A stretch of DNA of 64,000 nt from a virus. The notes under the pieces were generated by a model. That model was given only the letters and a program-made list of their open reading frames with translations. It was not told the DNA's origin and made no database searches. The stretch lies in IMG/VR virus record IMGVR_UViG_3300032046_005540, positions 96,001 through 160,000 of that record. One strand, 5' to 3'. The translations under genes and the position numbers were made by a program. Every line of letters begins with the position of its first letter. Position 1 is the first letter of the stretch. Positions 1 through 12,526 of this stretch are shown here, piece after piece.

Positions 1-180
1 CAAAAATAAACCATAACCAAGAGGAGGCTCTACAACAATTCCAATACTAACTTCTCTCCAACTATGGGCAGGAATAATTACTTCCTCCACAGAATATAAA
101 TCAAAGCAGCTATCAGATTCATAAGTCTTTGTAGGTAATTTTGCATTTGGATGAATTAATTTACATTTAACAACTATCAT
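1..180 (-). CDS. dut: dUTPase (trimeric type), N-terminal part, truncated by the window edge
   Basis: Manual translation MIVVKCKLIHPNAKLPTKTYESDSCFDLYSVEEVIIPAHSWREVSIGIVVEPPLGYGLFL matches the dUTPase N-terminus (A.LP...xxxDL motif 1, G+..+.P.GY). ATGA overlap with the upstream gene. Confidence 0.85.
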   Translation of the reverse strand, partial: MIVVKCKLIHPNAKLPTKTYESDSCFDLYSVEEVIIPAHSWREVSIGIVVEPPLGYGLFL

Positions 181-542
181 CTTCCCTCCATCAATAAATT
201 TACTATTCTAACTATTTCTTCCCAATTGTTTTCAAATCTAACTGCTCGATCATCAATATAAACATCGGCAAATACTTTGCCTTGAGAACCATCATCAACT
301 TCATCAAAAGGTATATTATTTCTTTCTAAAAAATCTTTTATTATTCTTACTTGAGTAAGTCTTTCTGCTAAATTTGGATGTAATTTCGTATTGGCTCTGC
401 AAGAAGTTATAATAATATAACATCCTATTTCTTTCAATAGTCTAATACAACGAATAGCATTTTCTTTCAAAGGACCTATATCTGGATATTCATTTTCAAC
501 TATTGTTCCATCAAAATCTATAGCAACTACAAAAGGTCTCAT
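177..542 (-). CDS. HAD-superfamily phosphatase / nucleotidase-like protein
   Basis: Motif I IDFDGT, motif II TSCR, C-terminal GKVFADVYIDD. Confidence 0.75.
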   Translation of the reverse strand: MRPFVVAIDFDGTIVENEYPDIGPLKENAIRCIRLLKEIGCYIIITSCRANTKLHPNLAERLTQVRIIKDFLERNNIPFDEVDDGSQGKVFADVYIDDRAVRFENNWEEIVRIVNLLMEGR

Positions 543-1108
543 TGGACTCCTTTCACCTTATAGCAAGCTTCTTGAATATCTCGAAATTCTTTTGTAAATC
601 TATCCATTAAAATAATAGCAAAAGATTTTACATCATATCCTAAATCAGGAAGATCTTCTAAACCAATAGCTAATACAGGACAATTTTTTCCAACTTTAAT
701 ATTTAAACCTACATGGATAAGACCTGAAACTGGAGACGAAGTAGCAATAGAAACAGAAAGTTTTTTACAATCAACAAAAATATCATCTCCTTCACGACGA
801 AGTTTATAAGATTCTGGTATTGTTAAACTTCTTAAAAAATCAATAGTTTGTGTAATAAAAAGTCTTTGCCAAACAACCATTTCTCTTAAAGAAATATCAA
901 AAATCTCAATTATGAAATGAAGCATACTCTCACTACTAATAAAATCATTCTTTAATCTATCCTCACAATCTACCAAATGTTCTTTAACTTCCGCAGGGCC
1001 TATAAAACTTACAATACTATTTCCTTTTACTCCATGTGCGTAGGCAAAGTGAGAGTGTAATTGAGAACCATCATATTTTATTTCTCCATTTAAAGATCTA
1101 AACTTCAT
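539..1108 (-). CDS. DUF366 family protein (biotin/lipoate ligase-like fold; often neighbours que genes)
   Basis: YDGSQL...AY...G.KGNSIVSFIGP, VD.ED, I.S..MLHFIIE, REGDDI...KKLSVSIAT, IHVGLNI. Confidence 0.75.
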   Translation of the reverse strand: MKFRSLNGEIKYDGSQLHSHFAYAHGVKGNSIVSFIGPAEVKEHLVDCEDRLKNDFISSESMLHFIIEIFDISLREMVVWQRLFITQTIDFLRSLTIPESYKLRREGDDIFVDCKKLSVSIATSSPVSGLIHVGLNIKVGKNCPVLAIGLEDLPDLGYDVKSFAIILMDRFTKEFRDIQEACYKVKGVQ

Positions 1109-2135: not shown

Positions 2136-2603
2136 TTAGTTCTCCTTCTCATATGGAAATTTAATCCAAACATCTTTATCTTCACTTGCAGCAAAATAAT
2201 CAGGATCAAATTTTGAATTCTTTTTATAAAATAATACAGAAGTCCGAATGTTTTTGAACCCTTTTTTTCTATATAAATCCACAACGGCTTTCATCGTTTC
2301 TCCTGAATCTACTAATTCATCTACAATCAAAATTCTGCTTTCTTTTATAACATCAGGGAAACACAAATAAGACGGAGATCCTATTTTTAATTTAGATTGT
2401 TTATTTTCTTTAGTATAAGAACTTGTAACAACAATATCTAAAGGAATATTCCAACTATGAGACATAAAAAGTGCTGGAATAATACCCCCGCGAGAAATTC
2501 CCACAACAAGATCAAACTTTTCCTGAGCTTTGTTAGATATAATATCTATAAGGCGGTCAACTAACTGAAAGTAATATTCCCAAGAAATTTCTTCTTTTTT
2601 CAC
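2136..2603 (-). CDS. type I phosphoribosyltransferase (xanthine/guanine PRTase-like)
   Basis: VGISRGG, PRPP-binding ILIVDELVDSGETM, C-terminal WIKFPYE. Confidence 0.9.
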   Translation of the reverse strand: MKKEEISWEYYFQLVDRLIDIISNKAQEKFDLVVGISRGGIIPALFMSHSWNIPLDIVVTSSYTKENKQSKLKIGSPSYLCFPDVIKESRILIVDELVDSGETMKAVVDLYRKKGFKNIRTSVLFYKKNSKFDPDYFAASEDKDVWIKFPYEKEN

Positions 2604-3274
2604 TAAACACCTCTTTTATCTTTATCCCAAATTATTTTATGCATTTGAAGACTATACCGAACGTCTAATTGATCCTTCAAAATCCATTCTGCTAATGTTT
2701 TTGGATCCATCTTTCCCCAAACAGGAGAAAATACATATTGTTCTTGTTTTATTGTTTGAGAATTATATTTTAATATAACCATTTTCGCATAGTCATAATC
2801 TTCCCTGTCCCCAATAATAAACTTTATTTCATCACACGGACGAAGATAATAAAAATTTGTCCAACACATTCCTTTTTCCATTCCAGAAAAAGGACATTTT
2901 ACATCCATACAAACAACACTAATATAAGGAATATATTTATAAATAGAAAGACTACCATTAGTTTCAAGAATAATATCTTTATCTAATTCTTTATTTATAA
3001 ACTTAACAAGATCAAAACAATTTGGAGACTGGAGAGGCTCCCCACCGGATAATAAAACTCTTTTACAATAACGATATTTACTTATTTCTGATGCTATTTT
3101 ATTGAACGTCATTATCTTTCCTTCTTTATAAGCCCATTTGCTGTCACAAAAAGAACAACGTAGATTACAGCCTGTTAACCTAACAATAACAACAGGCAAT
3201 CCTTTAGTTTTACCTTCTCCAGAAAATGTATAATATATTTCATTAACTTTTATCCTTTTTGTTCCTTCTTTCAT
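2603..3274 (-). CDS. queE: 7-carboxy-7-deazaguanine synthase QueE (radical SAM)
   Basis: EIYYTFSGEG...G.P...VRLTGCNLRCSFCDS, SGGEPL, ETNG, LQMHKIIW. Confidence 0.93.
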   Translation of the reverse strand: MKEGTKRIKVNEIYYTFSGEGKTKGLPVVIVRLTGCNLRCSFCDSKWAYKEGKIMTFNKIASEISKYRYCKRVLLSGGEPLQSPNCFDLVKFINKELDKDIILETNGSLSIYKYIPYISVVCMDVKCPFSGMEKGMCWTNFYYLRPCDEIKFIIGDREDYDYAKMVILKYNSQTIKQEQYVFSPVWGKMDPKTLAEWILKDQLDVRYSLQMHKIIWDKDKRGV

Positions 3275-3906
3275 TTAATTATTCCCTCCTCCAACCAAGT
3301 TTTAATAGGATCAAACGTTTTTCTATGAAATGGAGTAATACCATATTTTCTAATTGCTTCAATATGTTTCTTAGTTCCATATCCAACATTTGTTTTCCAA
3401 CCATACTTTTCATATTCAGGAAACTGATCAACTAAACTTTTTATATACCTATCTCTTAATACCTTAGCAATAACAGAAGCAGCCATAATAGAAGGTTCTT
3501 TTTCATCTCCTTTTATTATCCATATTTGATGTTCAAAAGGAATATTTAAAAGTTGTTTTTGATTATATAATTTACCGTCTATCAAAACAGTATCAGAAAT
3601 TGTTTTACCTGCTGTTTGTAGTTTTGGAAGAACTTCAAAAATTGCTCTTTGCATAGCTAACCTTGTTACATTAAGAATATTTTTTTCATCTATTTCTTGT
3701 ATGTTTGCAGAACCAGTTGCAAAAACAAGACCAAAATCTTTAAACTTTTGAAAAAGGTCTTCTCGTTGTTTCAAAGTTAATTTTTTAGAATCATTTAATC
3801 CATCAAAAGAAGGGTAAGATTCCCACAAAACAGCACCAGCAACTACGGGCCCTGCCAAGCACCCTCTTCCAACTTCATCACACCCAATTACAGAATTTAA
3901 TTTCAC
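3271..3906 (-). CDS. rnhB: ribonuclease HII
   Basis: GCDEVGRGCLAGPVVA, DSKKL, KGD, AASVIAKVLRD, GYGT..H, HRKTF. Likely GTG start at 3906 after GGAGG; the ORF track extends to 3972. Confidence 0.93.
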   Translation of the reverse strand: MKLNSVIGCDEVGRGCLAGPVVAGAVLWESYPSFDGLNDSKKLTLKQREDLFQKFKDFGLVFATGSANIQEIDEKNILNVTRLAMQRAIFEVLPKLQTAGKTISDTVLIDGKLYNQKQLLNIPFEHQIWIIKGDEKEPSIMAASVIAKVLRDRYIKSLVDQFPEYEKYGWKTNVGYGTKKHIEAIRKYGITPFHRKTFDPIKTWLEEGIIK

Positions 3907-3907
3907 T

Positions 3908-4231
3908 TTACTTCCTCCTAAATTTTTTAAATTCTGAAGCTCGATATCTTCCAATCTCTTTATCAAGAGCAATTTCTAATGTTTTTTCTTTCGAAATAAC
4001 TTCAACCGGAGAAGTATCTATACTATATCCATCCCACGTTGTAAGAATTTCTTTTTCTTTACACCTATCACAACACATCGCAAATTCTAATTGCAATGGT
4101 TTTTTTCCTTCCTTTCTAAACTTTTCCTCTTCTTCTTCAGTTAAAGGGCTTAAACATACTTGATCCATTTCACAAAACTTTTTACGTTTCCTACAAAACT
4201 CACAAGTTATTAAAACATCATTATAACTCAT
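3908..4231 (-). CDS. hypothetical Cys-rich (possible Zn-binding) protein
   Basis: CEFC...C...C and CCDRC motifs. Confidence 0.55.
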   Translation of the reverse strand: MSYNDVLITCEFCRKRKKFCEMDQVCLSPLTEEEEEKFRKEGKKPLQLEFAMCCDRCKEKEILTTWDGYSIDTSPVEVISKEKTLEIALDKEIGRYRASEFKKFRRK

Positions 4232-4232
4232 T

Positions 4233-5033
4233 TTAGAAATCCCAATTCTTTTTAAAATATGCTACTGCATTATGTTCATGGATGCTTTCATATGACATTA
4301 CTTTAATACTATATCCCTCAATGCCAGATATTTTATTTAAAGCAATAGCAACATCTCTTGCTACATCCTCTACAAATTTTGGATTTTTAAATGCCTTTTC
4401 CGTAACCCATTTTTCATCTGGGCGTTTTAAAACAGGATAAATATCGCAACTTCCCATTGACTCAATCAAAGAAACAACATCTTCAATCCATAAAGGTTTA
4501 CCTAAAAACTTCAATCTTGCAGTTACTATTGCTCTCTGATTATGAGCACCATATTTACTTATTGCTTTACTACAAGGGCATAAAGTAGTTATTGGAACTG
4601 AAACTTCAAGGTAAAAATCATATTTATTAGATGTTAATCGACCTACAAAAGCACAAGAATACCCTTGGATCCCATTTACTCTTTTTACTGGAGATTCTTT
4701 AGGAATAAAATATTTAAACCTAAAAACAGCATAAGCGTCCTTTGTTTTAAGTTTTCTTTTTAACTCTTCTAAAAATACTCTTAACTTTCTTGAATTTATT
4801 GTTTTATAACGATATTGCATTAAAACCTCAGAAAACCTTGACATATTAATCCCTCTAATCTCTTTCTCAAGGTCTCCATACATTGAAACAATCGCTTGAG
4901 TTGTTTGATATTGTCTCTTTTGTTTTTTAGCAACTAATATAGGAAAACTAACATCTTCAATACCTACTCTATAAAGAGGCACTCCTCGTTTATCTTTTAA
5001 CGCTTGAATATCCGGTAATTGTTCTTCAACCAT
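4233..5033 (-). CDS. folE2: GTP cyclohydrolase I, type IB (FolE2)
   Basis: LPDIQ, RVGI, RGINMSRF, TTLCPCSK.IS.YGAHNQR, LKRPDEK.VTE, NPKFVED, ESIH.HNA. Start at 5033 after AGGAG; the track gives 5102. Confidence 0.93.
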   Translation of the reverse strand: MVEEQLPDIQALKDKRGVPLYRVGIEDVSFPILVAKKQKRQYQTTQAIVSMYGDLEKEIRGINMSRFSEVLMQYRYKTINSRKLRVFLEELKRKLKTKDAYAVFRFKYFIPKESPVKRVNGIQGYSCAFVGRLTSNKYDFYLEVSVPITTLCPCSKAISKYGAHNQRAIVTARLKFLGKPLWIEDVVSLIESMGSCDIYPVLKRPDEKWVTEKAFKNPKFVEDVARDVAIALNKISGIEGYSIKVMSYESIHEHNAVAYFKKNWDF

Positions 5034-5052
5034 AGCTTCTCCTTCCAATTTT

Positions 5053-5481
5053 TTATTCTCCATATATAGCACTCGATTTAGGACCTTCAAACACTTCAAC
5101 ACTTATAAGTTTAACAGGATAAAACTCAGATTGAAAATTGTAAAACAAAAATTGTGCCATATGTTCTGCCGTAGGATTTCCTTGCATAGGATAAATTTGT
5201 TGCCCTTGATCTTTTGAAATAACATTCTGACAATGTAAAATTTCTATAAGAGGATCAGCAAAATTCAATATAAGTCCATGATCCCAATGTTGATCAATCC
5301 ATCCTTGAATTACTTTTTTTACAACAGAAAAATCAACTACCATTCCATCTTTATTAAGATCTTCACTCTCAAATGTAAAAATAGCACGCCAAGAATGGCC
5401 ATGGATACGCCCGCAAGGTCCTTCATAATTTAATAACCTGTGAGCCGCATCCCATTTAACTTCCTTAGCAATCTTAAACAT
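5053..5481 (-). CDS. queD: 6-carboxytetrahydropterin synthase QueD
   Basis: AAHRL..Y.G.C..IHGHSW, GMVVDF, WDH, NPTAE, FE. Confidence 0.93.
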   Translation of the reverse strand: MFKIAKEVKWDAAHRLLNYEGPCGRIHGHSWRAIFTFESEDLNKDGMVVDFSVVKKVIQGWIDQHWDHGLILNFADPLIEILHCQNVISKDQGQQIYPMQGNPTAEHMAQFLFYNFQSEFYPVKLISVEVFEGPKSSAIYGE

Positions 5482-7496: not shown

Positions 7497-8888
7497 TTAG
7501 AAGTCTTGTTCATCTCTTTTTGCTTTCTTCCAAATTTCTTGTAATTTATCTAAATCACCTATAAAATTTACACCAAAATCAGCAAATAATTCAATAGCTT
7601 TTGATTCACTATATCTACTCGCTACAATCTTTAAATAAACTTTTTTAGCGTGTTGAGTTGCCATTTCTTGTGCATTATTAATTCCATGCCAAATATTAAG
7701 GATTAAATCACAATGGGCTGCAGCCATATCTGAAAGAGCTACGTGTTCAGTATCCACTTCTTCCCTTTGAACATCTAAAGACCTTCTATTTTGTTGTGCC
7801 GCGGTCAATATAGATACCTTATAAGCTCTCGCAATCTCTTTTAATTCTCGAAATACATTATCATATTTTTCTGACCTATCTCTAAACTTTTCATCAGGTC
7901 TCATTAAATTAGCATAATCAATTAAAATATTATCAGGCTTAACTCCAAACACTTTTTTATGTAATTCTATTTCATAACCAACCCTCGAAGGTGTTATTCC
8001 TCGAGAAATATCAACTACATAAAAAGGACATTTTCTTTCTTTAAGATGCTCTAAAGTGTTCCTATAAATCTTTTCCTCTTCCTCAGTTAATTTAGCATCT
8101 CTTAAATCATTAAAAGAAATGCCGGTATATCTACTTTCCCACATTAATTGAAGCATTGCTAATTCCATTTCAATAGTAATATACATAACTTTATAACCTA
8201 AATCCGCGTCATTACATCCTACATTAAATAGAAAACGGCTTTTGCCTCTTTTCATTCTTCCAAAGACCATTGCAAGTTTTGAAGGAAATTGACCTCCAGT
8301 TGTTTGATCTAATTCAGTCATTCCATAAGGAATTCCTTTGTATTTTTCTGGATGTTCTTTTTTATCTAAATATTCTTTCCATCTTATCTCAGGATCTTCA
8401 TCAAGAAGAAGTCTACGAGTAACTTCATTTGAAGAATCGAATGTTTTAATATTTAAAATCTTTCCAGTAATATCTGACAAAGAATTAGAAATATTTCGGT
8501 CATTTGCTAAATCTTCTACCATATCAAAAGCAGTATTGTATAGTTCTCTTTTAATTTCTAATTCTTTCAACTCATCCAAATAAAACCTGAACCCAGAATC
8601 ATCTACAAATGTTTTTGATAACTCTCCATGTAAAGTTAATAAAGTAAATTGAAGATCAGTAGAAAACTCTTTTTCATTTCTTTTCAAAAACTTCTCTAAA
8701 ATATCGTAAGATAAAGTTTTATGATATTTTTCAAAATATCTACTTATTAAGTCAAATAACTTTTTATGATTTTCATCACAAAATGTTGAAACTTTAATTT
8801 TAGAAAGAGTTTCCTCTATATAACTAACATCTTTAAGTAGATATGAAAGAATAGTTTTTTCAACTACATTATCATTAAATTTTACCAT
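7497..8888 (-). CDS. dnaB: replicative DNA helicase, DnaB family
   Basis: GIPYG..ELD..TGG, Walker A GRMKRGKS, ITIEM, ILIDYANLM, LKEIAR, TAAQQNR. Confidence 0.92.
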   Translation of the reverse strand: MVKFNDNVVEKTILSYLLKDVSYIEETLSKIKVSTFCDENHKKLFDLISRYFEKYHKTLSYDILEKFLKRNEKEFSTDLQFTLLTLHGELSKTFVDDSGFRFYLDELKELEIKRELYNTAFDMVEDLANDRNISNSLSDITGKILNIKTFDSSNEVTRRLLLDEDPEIRWKEYLDKKEHPEKYKGIPYGMTELDQTTGGQFPSKLAMVFGRMKRGKSRFLFNVGCNDADLGYKVMYITIEMELAMLQLMWESRYTGISFNDLRDAKLTEEEEKIYRNTLEHLKERKCPFYVVDISRGITPSRVGYEIELHKKVFGVKPDNILIDYANLMRPDEKFRDRSEKYDNVFRELKEIARAYKVSILTAAQQNRRSLDVQREEVDTEHVALSDMAAAHCDLILNIWHGINNAQEMATQHAKKVYLKIVASRYSESKAIELFADFGVNFIGDLDKLQEIWKKAKRDEQDF

Positions 8889-8890
8889 AT

Positions 8891-9628
8891 TTATTCACTT
8901 TTTTTAGACTTTGGAAAGTTTACAAAAAATGGCATCGCAACATCAAAAGTAAGTCTTGGATCTTTAAAACTTTTAACTACTTCATAATAAGATTTCAAAG
9001 GCATTCCATTCCACTTTTTTTCATTCCACAACTTATTTAACTTTGTACCCTTTGCAGGCCTACAATACATTGCGTGAACTTGAATAATATTAGGAAGAGA
9101 CAAAGATTGTTCTAATGATTCTCTAAACTCCTTTATAGCAGTTTCATTATCTGTTACATAAGGTTTTGCTAATATATAAATAATATACTCAAAATTTCTA
9201 TTTTCACTAACTAACTTTTTTACATCTTCAAAATCAAAACCCTTTCCAATCTCTTTACTTCTATTAGGAAATACCGTCTCTAAACCAATACAAACTTCCA
9301 TTTCAATTTCAGGTTTTTCATTTGGAATAAATTCAGGTCTTGATTCTACTCTTAATTTTTTAACGCCATTTTCTTTTAAATACTTGATAACATCTCTCCA
9401 AGAAACTTGCATTTGTTCTAAATCAAAAAAGGATCCAGAATTAAAAATTCTAAAGTATTCAGGATACCCTCCATATGTTTCTTTACATGTTTTGAATTGG
9501 TCCCAAATATCTTCAGGAGTTGTTTCTGGATCCGTATCTTTTTTGAATCCACAGAAAATGCATCTACCCCATCTACAAGGCTTTACTCTTAAGCAAATTG
9601 TATTTTTATCCATCCAAACACATTTCAT
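8891..9628 (-). CDS. archaeosine biosynthesis radical SAM protein, RaSEA-like (TIGR01210-type)
   Basis: LRVKPCRWGRCIFCGF, IFNSGSFFD, VESRPEFI, EVCIGLET, IGKG, YILAKP correspond to RaSEA motifs (LRT.GC.W..C.MCGY, IFTSGSFLD, ESRPEF, IGLET, INKG, YLLLKP). Confidence 0.82.
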   Translation of the reverse strand: MKCVWMDKNTICLRVKPCRWGRCIFCGFKKDTDPETTPEDIWDQFKTCKETYGGYPEYFRIFNSGSFFDLEQMQVSWRDVIKYLKENGVKKLRVESRPEFIPNEKPEIEMEVCIGLETVFPNRSKEIGKGFDFEDVKKLVSENRNFEYIIYILAKPYVTDNETAIKEFRESLEQSLSLPNIIQVHAMYCRPAKGTKLNKLWNEKKWNGMPLKSYYEVVKSFKDPRLTFDVAMPFFVNFPKSKKSE

Positions 9629-9773
9629 TCATATCCTCCCTCTCTTCTAATCTCCTCAACTCAATATCTATCTCTTTAAGTTTTTTACTTTTTTTATCAA
9701 GTTCTTTTTCCAAATGAACAATTTGAAGTTCTAATTGACCTTTCTTTCTTTTCAAACAATTGTAGTCTTTCAT
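9606..9773 (-). CDS. small coiled-coil hypothetical protein (55 aa)
   Basis: Manual translation MKDYNCLKRKKGQLELQIVHLEKELDKK...; ATGA overlap with the arcS-like stop. Confidence 0.5.
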   Translation of the reverse strand: MKDYNCLKRKKGQLELQIVHLEKELDKKSKKLKEIDIELRRLEEREDMNEMCLDG

Positions 9774-10561
9774 ATTATCCCCTTTATTTTTTCAGCTTCG
9801 GTAGGAGTATCAATCCCACACAATTTAATAATTTCTAAAAATGGTTCATACCTATGAAAATTCCTATATTCGTCAAATTTATTAATTGAAAAATACTTTT
9901 TACATCTTAAATAAACTTGCCACAAATCCGGATACGAATTATTATATTTAAGAACAAACGGATGTTCCCAAAATTCTTCAGGAACTACTCCAATAGTAGT
10001 AATTACTACTTTATAATATTCGTCTAAATTTTCTATTTTCGCATATATCTCCTTATGAGTTTTTGAAGTGTTATAAGGTCTTTCAGCAGAACAAGACAAA
10101 AGTAAACATTTCTTTTTATCAGTTTTAAAACTACTCATTTGATCTAACAATTCACGAATATACAACCTATTATAAGAATGGAAACTTGATACCATTATCT
10201 TTTTATCTTCAGGTAAAATATCTTTAGTAACCCCTTTCAAATCAACTTGCATTAGAATATCAGAACAAATAGGAGTAAAAGAAGCAAACATTTCTATTAA
10301 ATCACGAAGACAACCTTTTTCTTTTGCCCTCTCTATCCAATTCAAAATTTCTTCAATAGAATAAATAGACCATAATCCATAATTAATATCTTTGTGAACA
10401 CTTTCTTTTTCAACCTCATGACCAAAATAAATCAAAAACGGAACTTGACTTAATGGTGCGTTCTTTACAAACCACTTCTCTTTCAACCCACGAGAAGCAA
10501 AAGATTTGAGTGCGGTTCCATTATAAACAAAAGGATATTTTTTAAAATCAACGGTTTTCAT
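9770..10561 (-). CDS. arcS: archaeosine synthase ArcS-like protein (TGT remnant + DUF5591, no PUA domain)
   Basis: LLLSCSAERPYNTSKTH matches ArcS LPCS..KPYS.S.SH; ITTIGVVPEE; KGCLRDLIE matches the G.LRELVE TGT remnant. Confidence 0.78.
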   Translation of the reverse strand: MKTVDFKKYPFVYNGTALKSFASRGLKEKWFVKNAPLSQVPFLIYFGHEVEKESVHKDINYGLWSIYSIEEILNWIERAKEKGCLRDLIEMFASFTPICSDILMQVDLKGVTKDILPEDKKIMVSSFHSYNRLYIRELLDQMSSFKTDKKKCLLLSCSAERPYNTSKTHKEIYAKIENLDEYYKVVITTIGVVPEEFWEHPFVLKYNNSYPDLWQVYLRCKKYFSINKFDEYRNFHRYEPFLEIIKLCGIDTPTEAEKIKGII

Positions 10562-10728
10562 ATTGCCTTAATAAAAGTTTTTATTGCTTTACAAATTTCA
10601 CAATGAGTAACAAAAGACTTTGCAGGTTTATTCTTTCTTTTAAATCCTAAAAATTTTCCTCTCCATTCCGCCACTATATCGATTTTTACATTACCACATT
10701 GCTCACATTTGTATGAAATAGCTTTCAT
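10558..10728 (-). CDS. small zinc-ribbon protein (56 aa)
   Basis: Manual translation MKAISYKCEQCGNV...HCEICKAIKTF; overlaps the arcS start (ATGA). Confidence 0.55.
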   Translation of the reverse strand: MKAISYKCEQCGNVKIDIVAEWRGKFLGFKRKNKPAKSFVTHCEICKAIKTFIKAI

Positions 10729-10729
10729 T

Positions 10730-11044
10730 TTATTTACCTCCTAAATTTTCAAATTCCTCGCAAGCTTTTTTAAAAACTTCTTTTTTTGTTTTTCTATTAT
10801 AAATAAAACTTTTACTGCCTAAACATTCTTCTACTTCATTCTCTTCGATTTTTTTAAATATTATAAATTCAGGTTCATAATATTTTGAATCTCCTCTACC
10901 ACACCAAGCAGTTTTTCCACCTACCTTACATAACATACCAATTTCTGTTTCTTTTATAATTTCTACATTCGCTCCGAAATCTACCCCAGGCACTTCTATA
11001 CAATTTTTTCCTTTTTCGTTAGTATATCTTTTTATAGTAGCCAT
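10730..11044 (-). CDS. hypothetical protein
   Basis: 104-aa ORF, RBS AGGAG. Confidence 0.55.
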   Translation of the reverse strand: MATIKRYTNEKGKNCIEVPGVDFGANVEIIKETEIGMLCKVGGKTAWCGRGDSKYYEPEFIIFKKIEENEVEECLGSKSFIYNRKTKKEVFKKACEEFENLGGK

Positions 11045-11787
11045 TATTTTTCTCCTAACAATTCTTTTTTAATATCTTTTAAAATCTCAGGACGAAAACT
11101 TTCACCAACTAAAGGAACATTGATCAATCTCTCTGAAAAAATTTCATAAATAGTTTTACCAAAGCCTTCTAAAACTTTTGAAGGTTCCTTATTAGAAGTT
11201 ACAATAAATGGTTTTCCCGAATAATACCTTTTCTTAAACAACTCATCTAACAAAGTATCAATCAATTCTGTTTTATATTTTTTGTCTATTTCATCTACGA
11301 GTAAAAAATCCACATCTTCTATAATATAGAAAAGAAATTCTTTTGTTCTCATATCTCTTAATGCGGTATGAGCTAAATTTATCAATTCCGAAAGAAGAAT
11401 AAAATGAGCTTTATATTTTTGAGTCAAAGCCTTTTTCAAAATTGAACATCCAATAAAACTTTTACCAACACCATAAGAACCATGAATAAACAAACCAGAA
11501 CCTGTTTCGACAACTTTAGATAAATTTTCCGAATACTTACCAATAATTTCTAATGAACCGCTATTTTTATCTAAAAATGGTGAAGTAAAGTATTTAAAAT
11601 CAAGTTCCAAATCCCAATAACTTCTAGGAATATTTGCATTAAGCATATCTACATAACGCCGAAACTCATCAATACAACTACACAATTTAAAACCTTCAGG
11701 AGTTAAATAACGACCTTTACCTTCACATTTAGAACAATTGTCTAAAATCTTTATTTTTAATTTTTCTACATCTTGAACGGAATACAT
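11044..11787 (-). CDS. DnaC/IstB-like AAA+ helicase loader
   Basis: N-terminal CxxC.G.G...C.C, Walker A GSYGVGKS, Walker B FLLVDEI, IVTSN, GESFR. Confidence 0.88.
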   Translation of the reverse strand: MYSVQDVEKLKIKILDNCSKCEGKGRYLTPEGFKLCSCIDEFRRYVDMLNANIPRSYWDLELDFKYFTSPFLDKNSGSLEIIGKYSENLSKVVETGSGLFIHGSYGVGKSFIGCSILKKALTQKYKAHFILLSELINLAHTALRDMRTKEFLFYIIEDVDFLLVDEIDKKYKTELIDTLLDELFKKRYYSGKPFIVTSNKEPSKVLEGFGKTIYEIFSERLINVPLVGESFRPEILKDIKKELLGEK

Positions 11788-11983: not shown

Positions 11984-12526
11984 TTATCTTATAATAACCT
12001 TTGTTCCAACCATTACATTTCTCCATACTATTTCTAAATCTATATCCTCTAATCTAATACAACCATGCGAAACTCTTCCCTGAACTCTTGCTCCTCTAAT
12101 ACCATGAATTCCCACTTCACCTCCTAAATCTAACTTATACTTTCCTAAATGATTCCTTATAATTCTACTTGGATCATTAGGTGGAGGAATTGGTTTTCCT
12201 TCTTCTATAAATGCCCAATCTGGTTTTCTCCAAATTGGATTTCGAATTTTAGCTACAACCTTTCTTTCTCCCGAAGGAGTTCCAAATTTCCAAACTTTGT
12301 TTCCATATTTAAGAATTTTCCCTGTTCCTATTCCACATTTAGCTTTCCAAATTGTATCAGCATCTATTATCAAATATAAAGTCTGAGAGGTCTTATCAAT
12401 TAATATATAAGTTTTAGTTGAGTCTATTGTTCGGTCATGGTAATCTACTATTCCAACTCCATAACTTTTTTGGAAGCTAAAAAGTAAACTAAAAATAATA
12501 AGACTTAAAAAAATAGTTTTAGACAT
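11984..12526 (-). CDS. L,D-transpeptidase (YkuD family) with signal peptide
   Basis: ILIDKTSQTLYL, GTPSG, NPIW..PDW, catalytic GIHG...SHGCIRL; hydrophobic N-terminus. Confidence 0.9.
   Translation of the reverse strand: MSKTIFLSLIIFSLLFSFQKSYGVGIVDYHDRTIDSTKTYILIDKTSQTLYLIIDADTIWKAKCGIGTGKILKYGNKVWKFGTPSGERKVVAKIRNPIWRKPDWAFIEEGKPIPPPNDPSRIIRNHLGKYKLDLGGEVGIHGIRGARVQGRVSHGCIRLEDIDLEIVWRNVMVGTKVIIR

Follow-up and report, generated by a model that had tools for sequence, protein, structure and literature searches.

What does a phage with bacterial-type replication genes do with relatives of two enzymes that together make archaeosine (G+) in archaea? The question is raised by a stretch of 64,000 nucleotides, in the following called the window, which comprises bases 96001–160000 of the IMG/VR record IMGVR_UViG_3300032046_005540 (full record 168,267 bp, ∼90% complete). 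Two genes on the minus strand are concerned. One codes for ArcS2, a stand-alone ArcS catalytic core (DUF5591/C1) of 263 amino acids (aa) at position 9770–10561 with matches to PF17884 and NF040592; the other, at position 8891–9628, codes for a short RaSEA-like radical S-adenosylmethionine (SAM) enzyme of 245 aa that matches TIGR01210. In Thermococcus kodakarensis, ArcS moves lysine onto the nitrile of 7-cyano-7-deazaguanine (preQ0), and RaSEA then forms G+ by cleavage of the adduct; ArcS is active only in complex with RaSEA (PMC11298593). As the phage encodes the pair together with a full preQ0 pathway and a homologue of the transglycosylase DpdA3, the most likely outcome is that it places archaeosine in its own DNA, by a route of which we found no description in phages. 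We consider it probable that the pair is a split minimal archaeosine synthase which would finish a 7-deazaguanine DNA modification, leading from preQ0 through an amine adduct to 2′-deoxyarchaeosine (dG+) in DNA. A preliminary description of the locus had proposed such a two-step synthesis by ArcS and a radical SAM enzyme, and the proposal has gained from the preQ0 pathway, from DpdA3, from the conservation of the pair and from fusions of the two domains. What is observed are gene content and homologies; from these we still infer lysine as the donor, dG+ as the product and DNA as the substrate, and likewise the formation of a complex.

ArcS2 matches DUF5591 in Pfam (PF17884, E 1.3e-8) and the NCBIfam ArcS model NF040592 (E 2.3e-14, 52.9 bits), residues 68–197 aligning with positions 208–344 of the 575 positions of the model. 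The full ArcS architecture consists of an N domain similar to tRNA-guanine transglycosylase (TGT), C1, C2, and PUA, and scores above 440 bits. Unlike archaeal ArcS of about 575 aa, the phage protein comprises the C1 core only, without the TGT-like N domain, C2, and PUA; at 52.9 bits against the 440-bit threshold of NF040592 and with no Pfam match to TGT or PUA it is not an ArcS of full architecture, and the earlier remark that it lacks the RNA-binding PUA domain holds for the whole 263-aa protein. It agrees with the definition of phage ArcS2 (PMC10516641), a DUF5591 core only, virus-encoded together with DpdA and preQ0 genes. The match to the ArcS2-like genes adjoining QueC in the Vibrio phages GR7B and GR11A is weak but significant. 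Among PDB entries, the AlphaFold2 (AF2) model of ArcS2 (predicted local distance difference test, pLDDT, 85) resembles most closely AF0587 (2q07), a DUF5591 protein, and archaeal TGT (arcTGT). The ArcS signature PC-x3-KPY-x2-S-x2-H reads SC-SAE-RPY-NT-S-KT-H in ArcS2, with the Cys, Pro-Tyr, Ser, and His retained, and C157, P162, Y163, G191, and Y206 are invariant in the ArcS2 alignment (A2).

The co-oriented block of minus-strand genes that contains the pair codes for the complete set of enzymes from GTP to preQ0: FolE2, GTP cyclohydrolase IB (4233–5102; PF02649 E 1.6e-80; NF010200 252.7 bits, above cut-off), QueD, 6-carboxytetrahydropterin synthase (5053–5481; PF01242 E 4e-31; TIGR03367 E 8e-23), the radical SAM enzyme QueE, 7-carboxy-7-deazaguanine synthase (2603–3274; TIGR04349 E 1.5e-59), and the preQ0 synthase QueC (1447–2133; PF06508 E 4e-53; TIGR00364 at cut-off), which is not fused to a glutamine amidotransferase. 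Neither QueF nor Gat-QueC is found in the genome, which leaves only ArcS2 and the radical SAM enzyme as candidates for the tailoring of preQ0.

The DpdA3 homologue (264 aa) is encoded on the minus strand at G000:C1:86431-87225, about 9 kb before the window, and adjoins RecA. It came to light only when CGPG_00065, the DpdA3 of Cellulophaga phage phiST, was compared directly (phmmer E 3.5e-17; tblastn E 1.9e-13 over residues 21–259). Genome searches with PF01702 (TGT) and PF20314 (DpdA4, DUF6610) were empty even at E 10; for PF01702 this blank is what would be expected of a distant subfamily. The AF2 model (pLDDT 87) has arcTGT and TGT as its top PDB matches with probability 1.0. DpdA3 is the subfamily of phages with complete guanine replacement (PMC10516641). 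Directly upstream of DpdA3 and RecA, about 7.5–8.8 kb before the window (G000:C1:87240-88473; L006:11241-12474), a kinase-like P-loop protein (AAA_28) and a nucleoside diphosphate kinase (NDK) are encoded, and this gene order is also that of a 106-kb relative.

All characterized ArcS–RaSEA systems act on tRNA (PMC11298593), and one could suppose that the phage module does the same on host or phage tRNA. Against this, the search with PF01702 found no arcTGT or bacterial TGT in the genome, and the sole transglycosylase is of the DpdA3 type known from phages with fully modified DNA. In addition, ArcS2 is devoid of PUA or another RNA-binding domain, no tRNA genes were found in the window, and the genes are part of the replication module. 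We regard an RNA target as extremely improbable. The phage differs from the archaeal system in its carrier, a bacteriophage, and in its likely substrate, which would be DNA instead of G15 of tRNA.

The pairing itself is conserved. Stand-alone genes for the radical SAM enzyme and the DUF5591 protein are adjacent, in either order, in four divergent phage-like lineages. The first is formed by the present genome and L003 (the IMG/VR scan yielded a single related viral contig, L003/L014), with DpdA3 in the genome. In the second, L005, the order is DpdA3-like, radical SAM, DUF5591, QueC, and in the third, L009/L010, it is QueC, DpdA3, a 67-aa open reading frame (ORF), radical SAM, DUF5591, a DNA polymerase fusion, RecA, and FolE2. 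The fourth, L011/L012, has dUTPase, DUF5591, radical SAM and, further on, QueD; no DpdA3 was seen within the stretch fetched for these contigs. A DpdA3 gene lies beside or near the pair in three of the four lineages. As the gene order varies and the identity goes down to about 25%, the adjacency is kept by selection and not by recent common descent, and as a close relative has the pair elsewhere than between DnaC and DnaB, the pair moves as a unit. With three further lineages and at least seven proteins in which both domains are fused, the association is far beyond chance.

The reading we prefer, archaeosine synthesis on DNA, can be formulated as follows. DpdA3 would swap guanine in the phage DNA for preQ0. 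ArcS2 would then add an amine, by archaeal precedent most likely the epsilon-amino group of lysine, through its conserved cysteine to the nitrile of the DNA-borne preQ0, and the adduct, dPreQ0-Lys, would be an N-alkyl amidine. Its alkyl C–N bond would be cleaved by the short RaSEA-like enzyme, which probably forms a complex with ArcS2, and the free amidine of dG+ would be left. This predicted course, from preQ0 via an amine adduct to an amidine, is that of the archaeal enzymes; the phage resembles T. kodakarensis and other Euryarchaeota in that members of the same two families are encoded together, that the Cys and Pro-Tyr of ArcS are kept and that the partner is a radical SAM enzyme. The preQ0-Lys adduct is not exchanged back by arcTGT (PMC11298593). 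Converting preQ0 to the adduct or to G+ should likewise block the reverse exchange and drive the replacement toward completion as in other DpdA3 phages, and DNA modified in this way would presumably resist host restriction.

Several observations weigh against this reading, and we gather them here. The radical SAM protein has TIGR01210 (RaSEA) as its best family (E 4.4e-30, 105 bits, model positions 16–244 of 313), and this score lies below the equivalog cut-off of 212 bits, canonical members reaching 350–362 bits. Its cluster motif is C18-x4-C23-x2-C26 (Cx4Cx2C), most canonical rows having Cx7-9Cx2C, and the C-terminal part corresponding to model positions 245–313 (the last ∼70) is missing. 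In a phylogeny of 47 rows (IQ-TREE) the phage clade stands outside canonical RaSEA, with all canonical rows on the opposite side of a branch with support 100/99. The queuine lyase 6p78 (E 8e-10) is the sole solved relative of the enzyme, and nearest to the phage enzyme in a protein-language-model search are short Bacillota radical SAM clusters, possibly of the queuine lyase family. ArcS2 deviates from the ArcS signature (S for P and R for K; close relatives have PC...RPY). The activity of DpdA3 has never been reconstituted (PMC10516641). Finally, a phosphoribosyltransferase (PRTase), a haloacid dehalogenase (HAD)-type phosphatase, the P-loop kinase-like protein, and NDK in the block also fit a chemistry at the level of nucleotides.

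It follows that the preliminary description went too far in taking the enzyme for RaSEA proper: unlike canonical RaSEA it is about 90 aa shorter, has the other cysteine spacing, stays below the cut-off, lacks the C-terminal part and falls outside the clade. Measured by these sequence features, the label “RaSEA” is too strong. The profile searches suggested in the description gave DUF5591 for ArcS2 and, for its partner, TIGR01210 as the best family, short of the curated cut-off. In the phylogeny, likewise suggested there, the protein does cluster outside RaSEA in the strict sense, though the group that it joins is linked to ArcS. Among 1.84 billion representatives, searched exhaustively with HMMER, the enzyme has only 257 relatives, and the best matches beyond close phage-like sequences are canonical RaSEA proteins of ∼340 aa (350–362 bits on TIGR01210). 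The Cys triad (C18, C23, C26) and G65, E95, G115, E117, and K129 are invariant in the alignment (A1). The phage clade itself is supported by 100/99 and lies between archaeal DUF5591 fusions and canonical RaSEA (93/88) in trees which are unrooted and do not have queuine lyase among their rows; a larger quick tree agrees with the split of canonical and short rows. In seven proteins of the non-canonical “short” group a radical SAM domain is followed by DUF5591 in one polypeptide, and one of these fusions is encoded near an arcTGT with PUA domain on an archaeal-type contig. The archaeal single-chain fusions (e.g., P0023 and P0069) share with the phage pair the short Cx4Cx2C radical SAM domain, the DUF5591 core and the position on the non-canonical side of the 100/99 split. 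They differ in that the phage version consists of two genes in variable order, that phage ArcS2 has ∼140 additional N-terminal aa, and that the phage pair occurs with DpdA3 and replication genes whereas the fusions stand beside arcTGT in a tRNA context. The genetic association with ArcS by which RaSEA is recognized is present, with a DUF5591 neighbor in four lineages and a fusion in seven related proteins, and the short group is tied to ArcS more tightly than canonical RaSEA is. As both tree neighbors of the phage clade are ArcS-linked, a RaSEA-like function stays likely.

The resemblance to queuine lyase allows another interpretation, in which the radical SAM protein is a salvage enzyme of this type, or has some other function unrelated to ArcS2, which would then act without a partner, as it does in Vibrio phage nt-1. 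Both enzymes are short (∼250 aa) and have the Cx4Cx2C motif in common, 6p78 is the best PDB match, the nearest language-model clusters are short Bacillota proteins, and the lyase also cleaves a C–N bond in a 7-deazaguanine side chain. The similarity to it extends over residues 9–141 (42 bits, E 8e-10). Pairwise scores of the phage enzyme with canonical RaSEA are about twice as high (78–90 bits); the lyase itself is as far from canonical RaSEA, with 40 bits, as it is from the fused forms, with 33 bits. Queuine lyase acts on free queuine in salvage, and the phage makes preQ0 de novo and is without QueF, so that neither queuine nor preQ1 is of use to it. No queuine-salvage genes are seen near the radical SAM gene, the phage has no other salvage component, and we found no report of a DUF5591 partner for queuine lyase. 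Adjacency or fusion to DUF5591 recurs in the phage enzyme's relatives across deep divergence. We therefore think that a queuine-lyase-type function is very improbable.

The divergence of both proteins could also mean that the final base is a different one. The radical SAM enzyme might modify the ArcS2 adduct rather than remove its side chain, or another amine might be used, giving a bulkier preQ0-amino-acid-type base or a new amidine. The position of the enzyme outside canonical RaSEA, its missing C-terminal region and the altered ArcS motif would fit such an outcome, and so would what is known of Vibrio phage nt-1. Like the present phage, nt-1 combines a stand-alone DUF5591 core with a DNA transglycosylase and preQ0 genes, with dG+ as the expected product. 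It differs in the transglycosylase, which is DpdA2 in nt-1 and here DpdA3, the type linked to complete guanine replacement; the identity between both ArcS2 proteins is about 22%, and nt-1 as well as GR7B are without a RaSEA-like gene. Virion DNA of nt-1 contains mainly 2′-deoxy-preQ0 (dPreQ0), dG+ being present in traces, at 44 per 10^6 nucleotides (nt) or 0.02% of G (PMC6884629). When nt-1 ArcS2 was added to DpdA2 in E. coli, dPreQ0 dropped from 926–1607 to 0–11 per 10^6 nt and only 4–7 dG+ appeared (PMC10516641, Table 3); in one case dPreQ0 went from 926 to 0 and only 4 dG+ were counted. As dPreQ0 vanishes with so little dG+, the greater part of the modified base has no counterpart among the species measured, which did not include a lysine-type adduct. 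That so little dG+ forms where the RaSEA-like gene is missing also speaks for the reading that we prefer. In both papers the role of the phage ArcS homologues is called unclear, and RaSEA, lysine, or a radical SAM partner are not mentioned (PMC6884629, PMC10516641). Against a different base in our phage stand the ArcS-linked tree neighbors, as these ArcS enzymes make G+, and the activity of the solved relative, since queuine lyase too is a C–N lyase on a 7-deazaguanine side chain. In addition, Pfam and NCBIfam searches revealed no methyl-donor or B12 domain in the proteins of the pair. A base other than dG+ appears distinctly unlikely to us.

A more serious alternative than queuine lyase is that the same chemistry takes place on nucleotides before replication. 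The PRTase would form preQ0 5′-monophosphate, ArcS2 and the RaSEA-like enzyme would turn this into the G+ nucleotide, from which kinases, NDK and a host reductase would produce dG+TP, and the DNA polymerase PolA would incorporate it. A purine-type PRTase (2136–2603, minus strand; PF00156 E 4.5e-22) is in fact wedged between QueE and QueC. In NCBIfam it comes closest to the models of xanthine and hypoxanthine-guanine PRTases, and it is homologous to a PRTase of phiST. Homologues occur in 13 of 50,697 isolate phage records, nine of them from DpdA3 phages with complete guanine replacement (the Cellulophaga phiST group and Flavobacterium vB_FspM_immuto) and four not; the 2023 paper on DpdA3 phages never mentions a phosphoribosyltransferase. 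The cluster also codes for a small HAD-type phosphatase (177–542, minus strand; NF046079 E 1e-15; phrog_1238), and the kinase-like protein and NDK directly upstream of DpdA3 are conserved in a relative. The substrate range of T. kodakarensis ArcS, which accepts preQ0 in RNA, as nucleoside and efficiently as 5′-monophosphate and not as the free base, would suit this route, the 5′-phosphorylated preQ0 nucleoside being converted almost completely; its Km for the nucleotide is on the other hand very high, 433 uM (PMC11298593). The presence of a TGT-fold DpdA3, tightly linked to the pair in three lineages, argues for base exchange in DNA, and in the record, which is ∼90% complete, a search for the large subunit of class I/II ribonucleotide reductase (PF02867) gave no match. 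Furthermore, an equally good reading of PRTase, kinase-like protein and NDK is that they return the guanine set free in the exchange to GTP, the precursor of preQ0; the PRTase may thus serve this purpose or may make 7-deazaguanine nucleotides. Taken together, we judge the nucleotide route to be unlikely. If true, it would be the first pre-replicative 7-deazaguanine pathway, would contradict the view that all of them are post-replicative base exchanges, and would call for re-examining the role of DpdA3.

Returning to archaeosine synthesis on DNA by ArcS2 and its radical SAM partner, the layout of the locus is as described before: both genes are near-adjacent on the minus strand with a 55-aa ORF (9606–9773, minus strand) between them, and the flanks of the pair are a DnaC/IstB-like AAA+ helicase loader (11044–11787, minus strand; family match) and a replicative helicase of the DnaB family (7497–8888, minus strand; TIGR00665 E 2e-32). 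The genes DnaC-like, orf104, a 56-aa zinc ribbon, ArcS2, orf55, radical SAM, and DnaB form a chain in which stops and starts overlap or abut, suggesting translational coupling, and a GGGAGG Shine–Dalgarno sequence precedes the ATG of the radical SAM gene. The Lys/Glu-rich 55-aa ORF is an ORF call of uncertain status that shares 4 nt with the end of ArcS2 and 23 nt with the beginning of the radical SAM gene. It is not conserved, relatives having a 70-nt gap and a longer N-terminus of the radical SAM protein instead; we also considered it as such an extension, cut off from the radical SAM gene by a frameshift, and rejected this for want of any similarity to the extensions of these relatives. Directly upstream of ArcS2 and overlapping it by 4 nt is a further ORF call of 56 aa (10558–10728, minus strand) with a four-cysteine motif (CxxC...CxxC) of zinc-ribbon or rubredoxin-like type. 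Its product could be a nucleic-acid binder in place of PUA or an electron donor to the radical SAM enzyme. Inspection by eye shows two cysteine pairs also in the N-terminal extension of P0013, an ArcS2 homologue with 67% identity.

RNase HII is encoded inside the preQ0 operon, between FolE2/orf107 and QueE (3271–3972, minus strand). At the distal end of the cluster lies a gene for a DUF366 protein (539–1108, minus strand; PF04017 E 3e-54), which matches the Pyrococcus horikoshii structure 2ddz in the PDB (E 1e-25) and has no PHROG or NCBIfam family. The literature searched holds no paper on DUF366; the protein could be a further component of the pathway. An HD hydrolase was not found in the genome. 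A 363-aa protein (phrog_1362) is encoded near DpdA3 here (G000:C1:90991-92082; L006:14992-16083) and in L003, and its homologue follows directly after the radical SAM gene in L011/L012 (L011:2752-3816; L012:4868-5932). It was tried as a DpdA candidate and rejected in view of the phrog_1362 match and a weak match to gp205 of Mycobacterium phage Myrna.

That the source is a bacteriophage with a bacterial host, as assumed from the beginning, is borne out by the gene content of the virus: bacterial-type RecA, DnaB, DnaC, DnaG, a family A DNA polymerase (PolA), a protein with sigma-70 region 4 and one with a YkuD-type L,D-transpeptidase domain, the latter encoded just upstream of the replication block (11984–12526, minus strand). 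The polymerase is ∼30% identical to those of SPO1-like Bacillus phages, and with an identity of only ∼30% there is no close isolate phage. It carries an N-terminal domain of the uracil-DNA glycosylase (UDG) superfamily (G000:C1:92615-95134; L006:16616-19135), and a UDG–PolA fusion is also the polymerase gene that adjoins the pair in the L009/L010 lineage (L009:11405-13939). The record has a G+C content of ∼30% and nearly all genes on the minus strand. The GC skew of the plus strand is strongly and uniformly negative across the whole window (about −0.15 to −0.39); with nearly all genes on the minus strand, this means a marked excess of G over C on the coding strand of a genome which is predicted to swap its G.

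The modification class and both enzyme families were known already. What is new is that phages combine ArcS2 with a RaSEA-like enzyme, that this combination is tied to DpdA3, and that RaSEA has a short sister group linked to ArcS. A phage route to dG+ with a dedicated RaSEA is not known, as the preliminary description had already indicated, and our searches bear this out: tblastn found no homologue of the radical SAM protein in the 50,697 isolate phage records, megablast found no match of the locus among isolate phages, PHROGs has no family for the protein, and a profile of the short radical SAM proteins gave nothing in nt-1, GR7B, or phiST (positive control on its own genome, E 4e-90). A full-text literature search (RaSEA with phage, ArcS2, preQ0-Lys) gave no paper linking RaSEA to phages.

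In phages, modification of DNA with 7-deazaguanines shields the genome from restriction, and such modifications are being mined as tools. A phage module that holds both halves of the synthase together with a high-efficiency DpdA3 links the work on archaeal ArcS–RaSEA with that on phage ArcS2. It predicts that efficient formation of dG+ needs the radical SAM partner and that a dPreQ0-Lys intermediate exists in DNA, and phages with ArcS2 only may accumulate an adduct that has gone unmeasured. The short group would then be a compact archaeosine synthase of two genes, or one gene in archaea, for biochemical and structural work.

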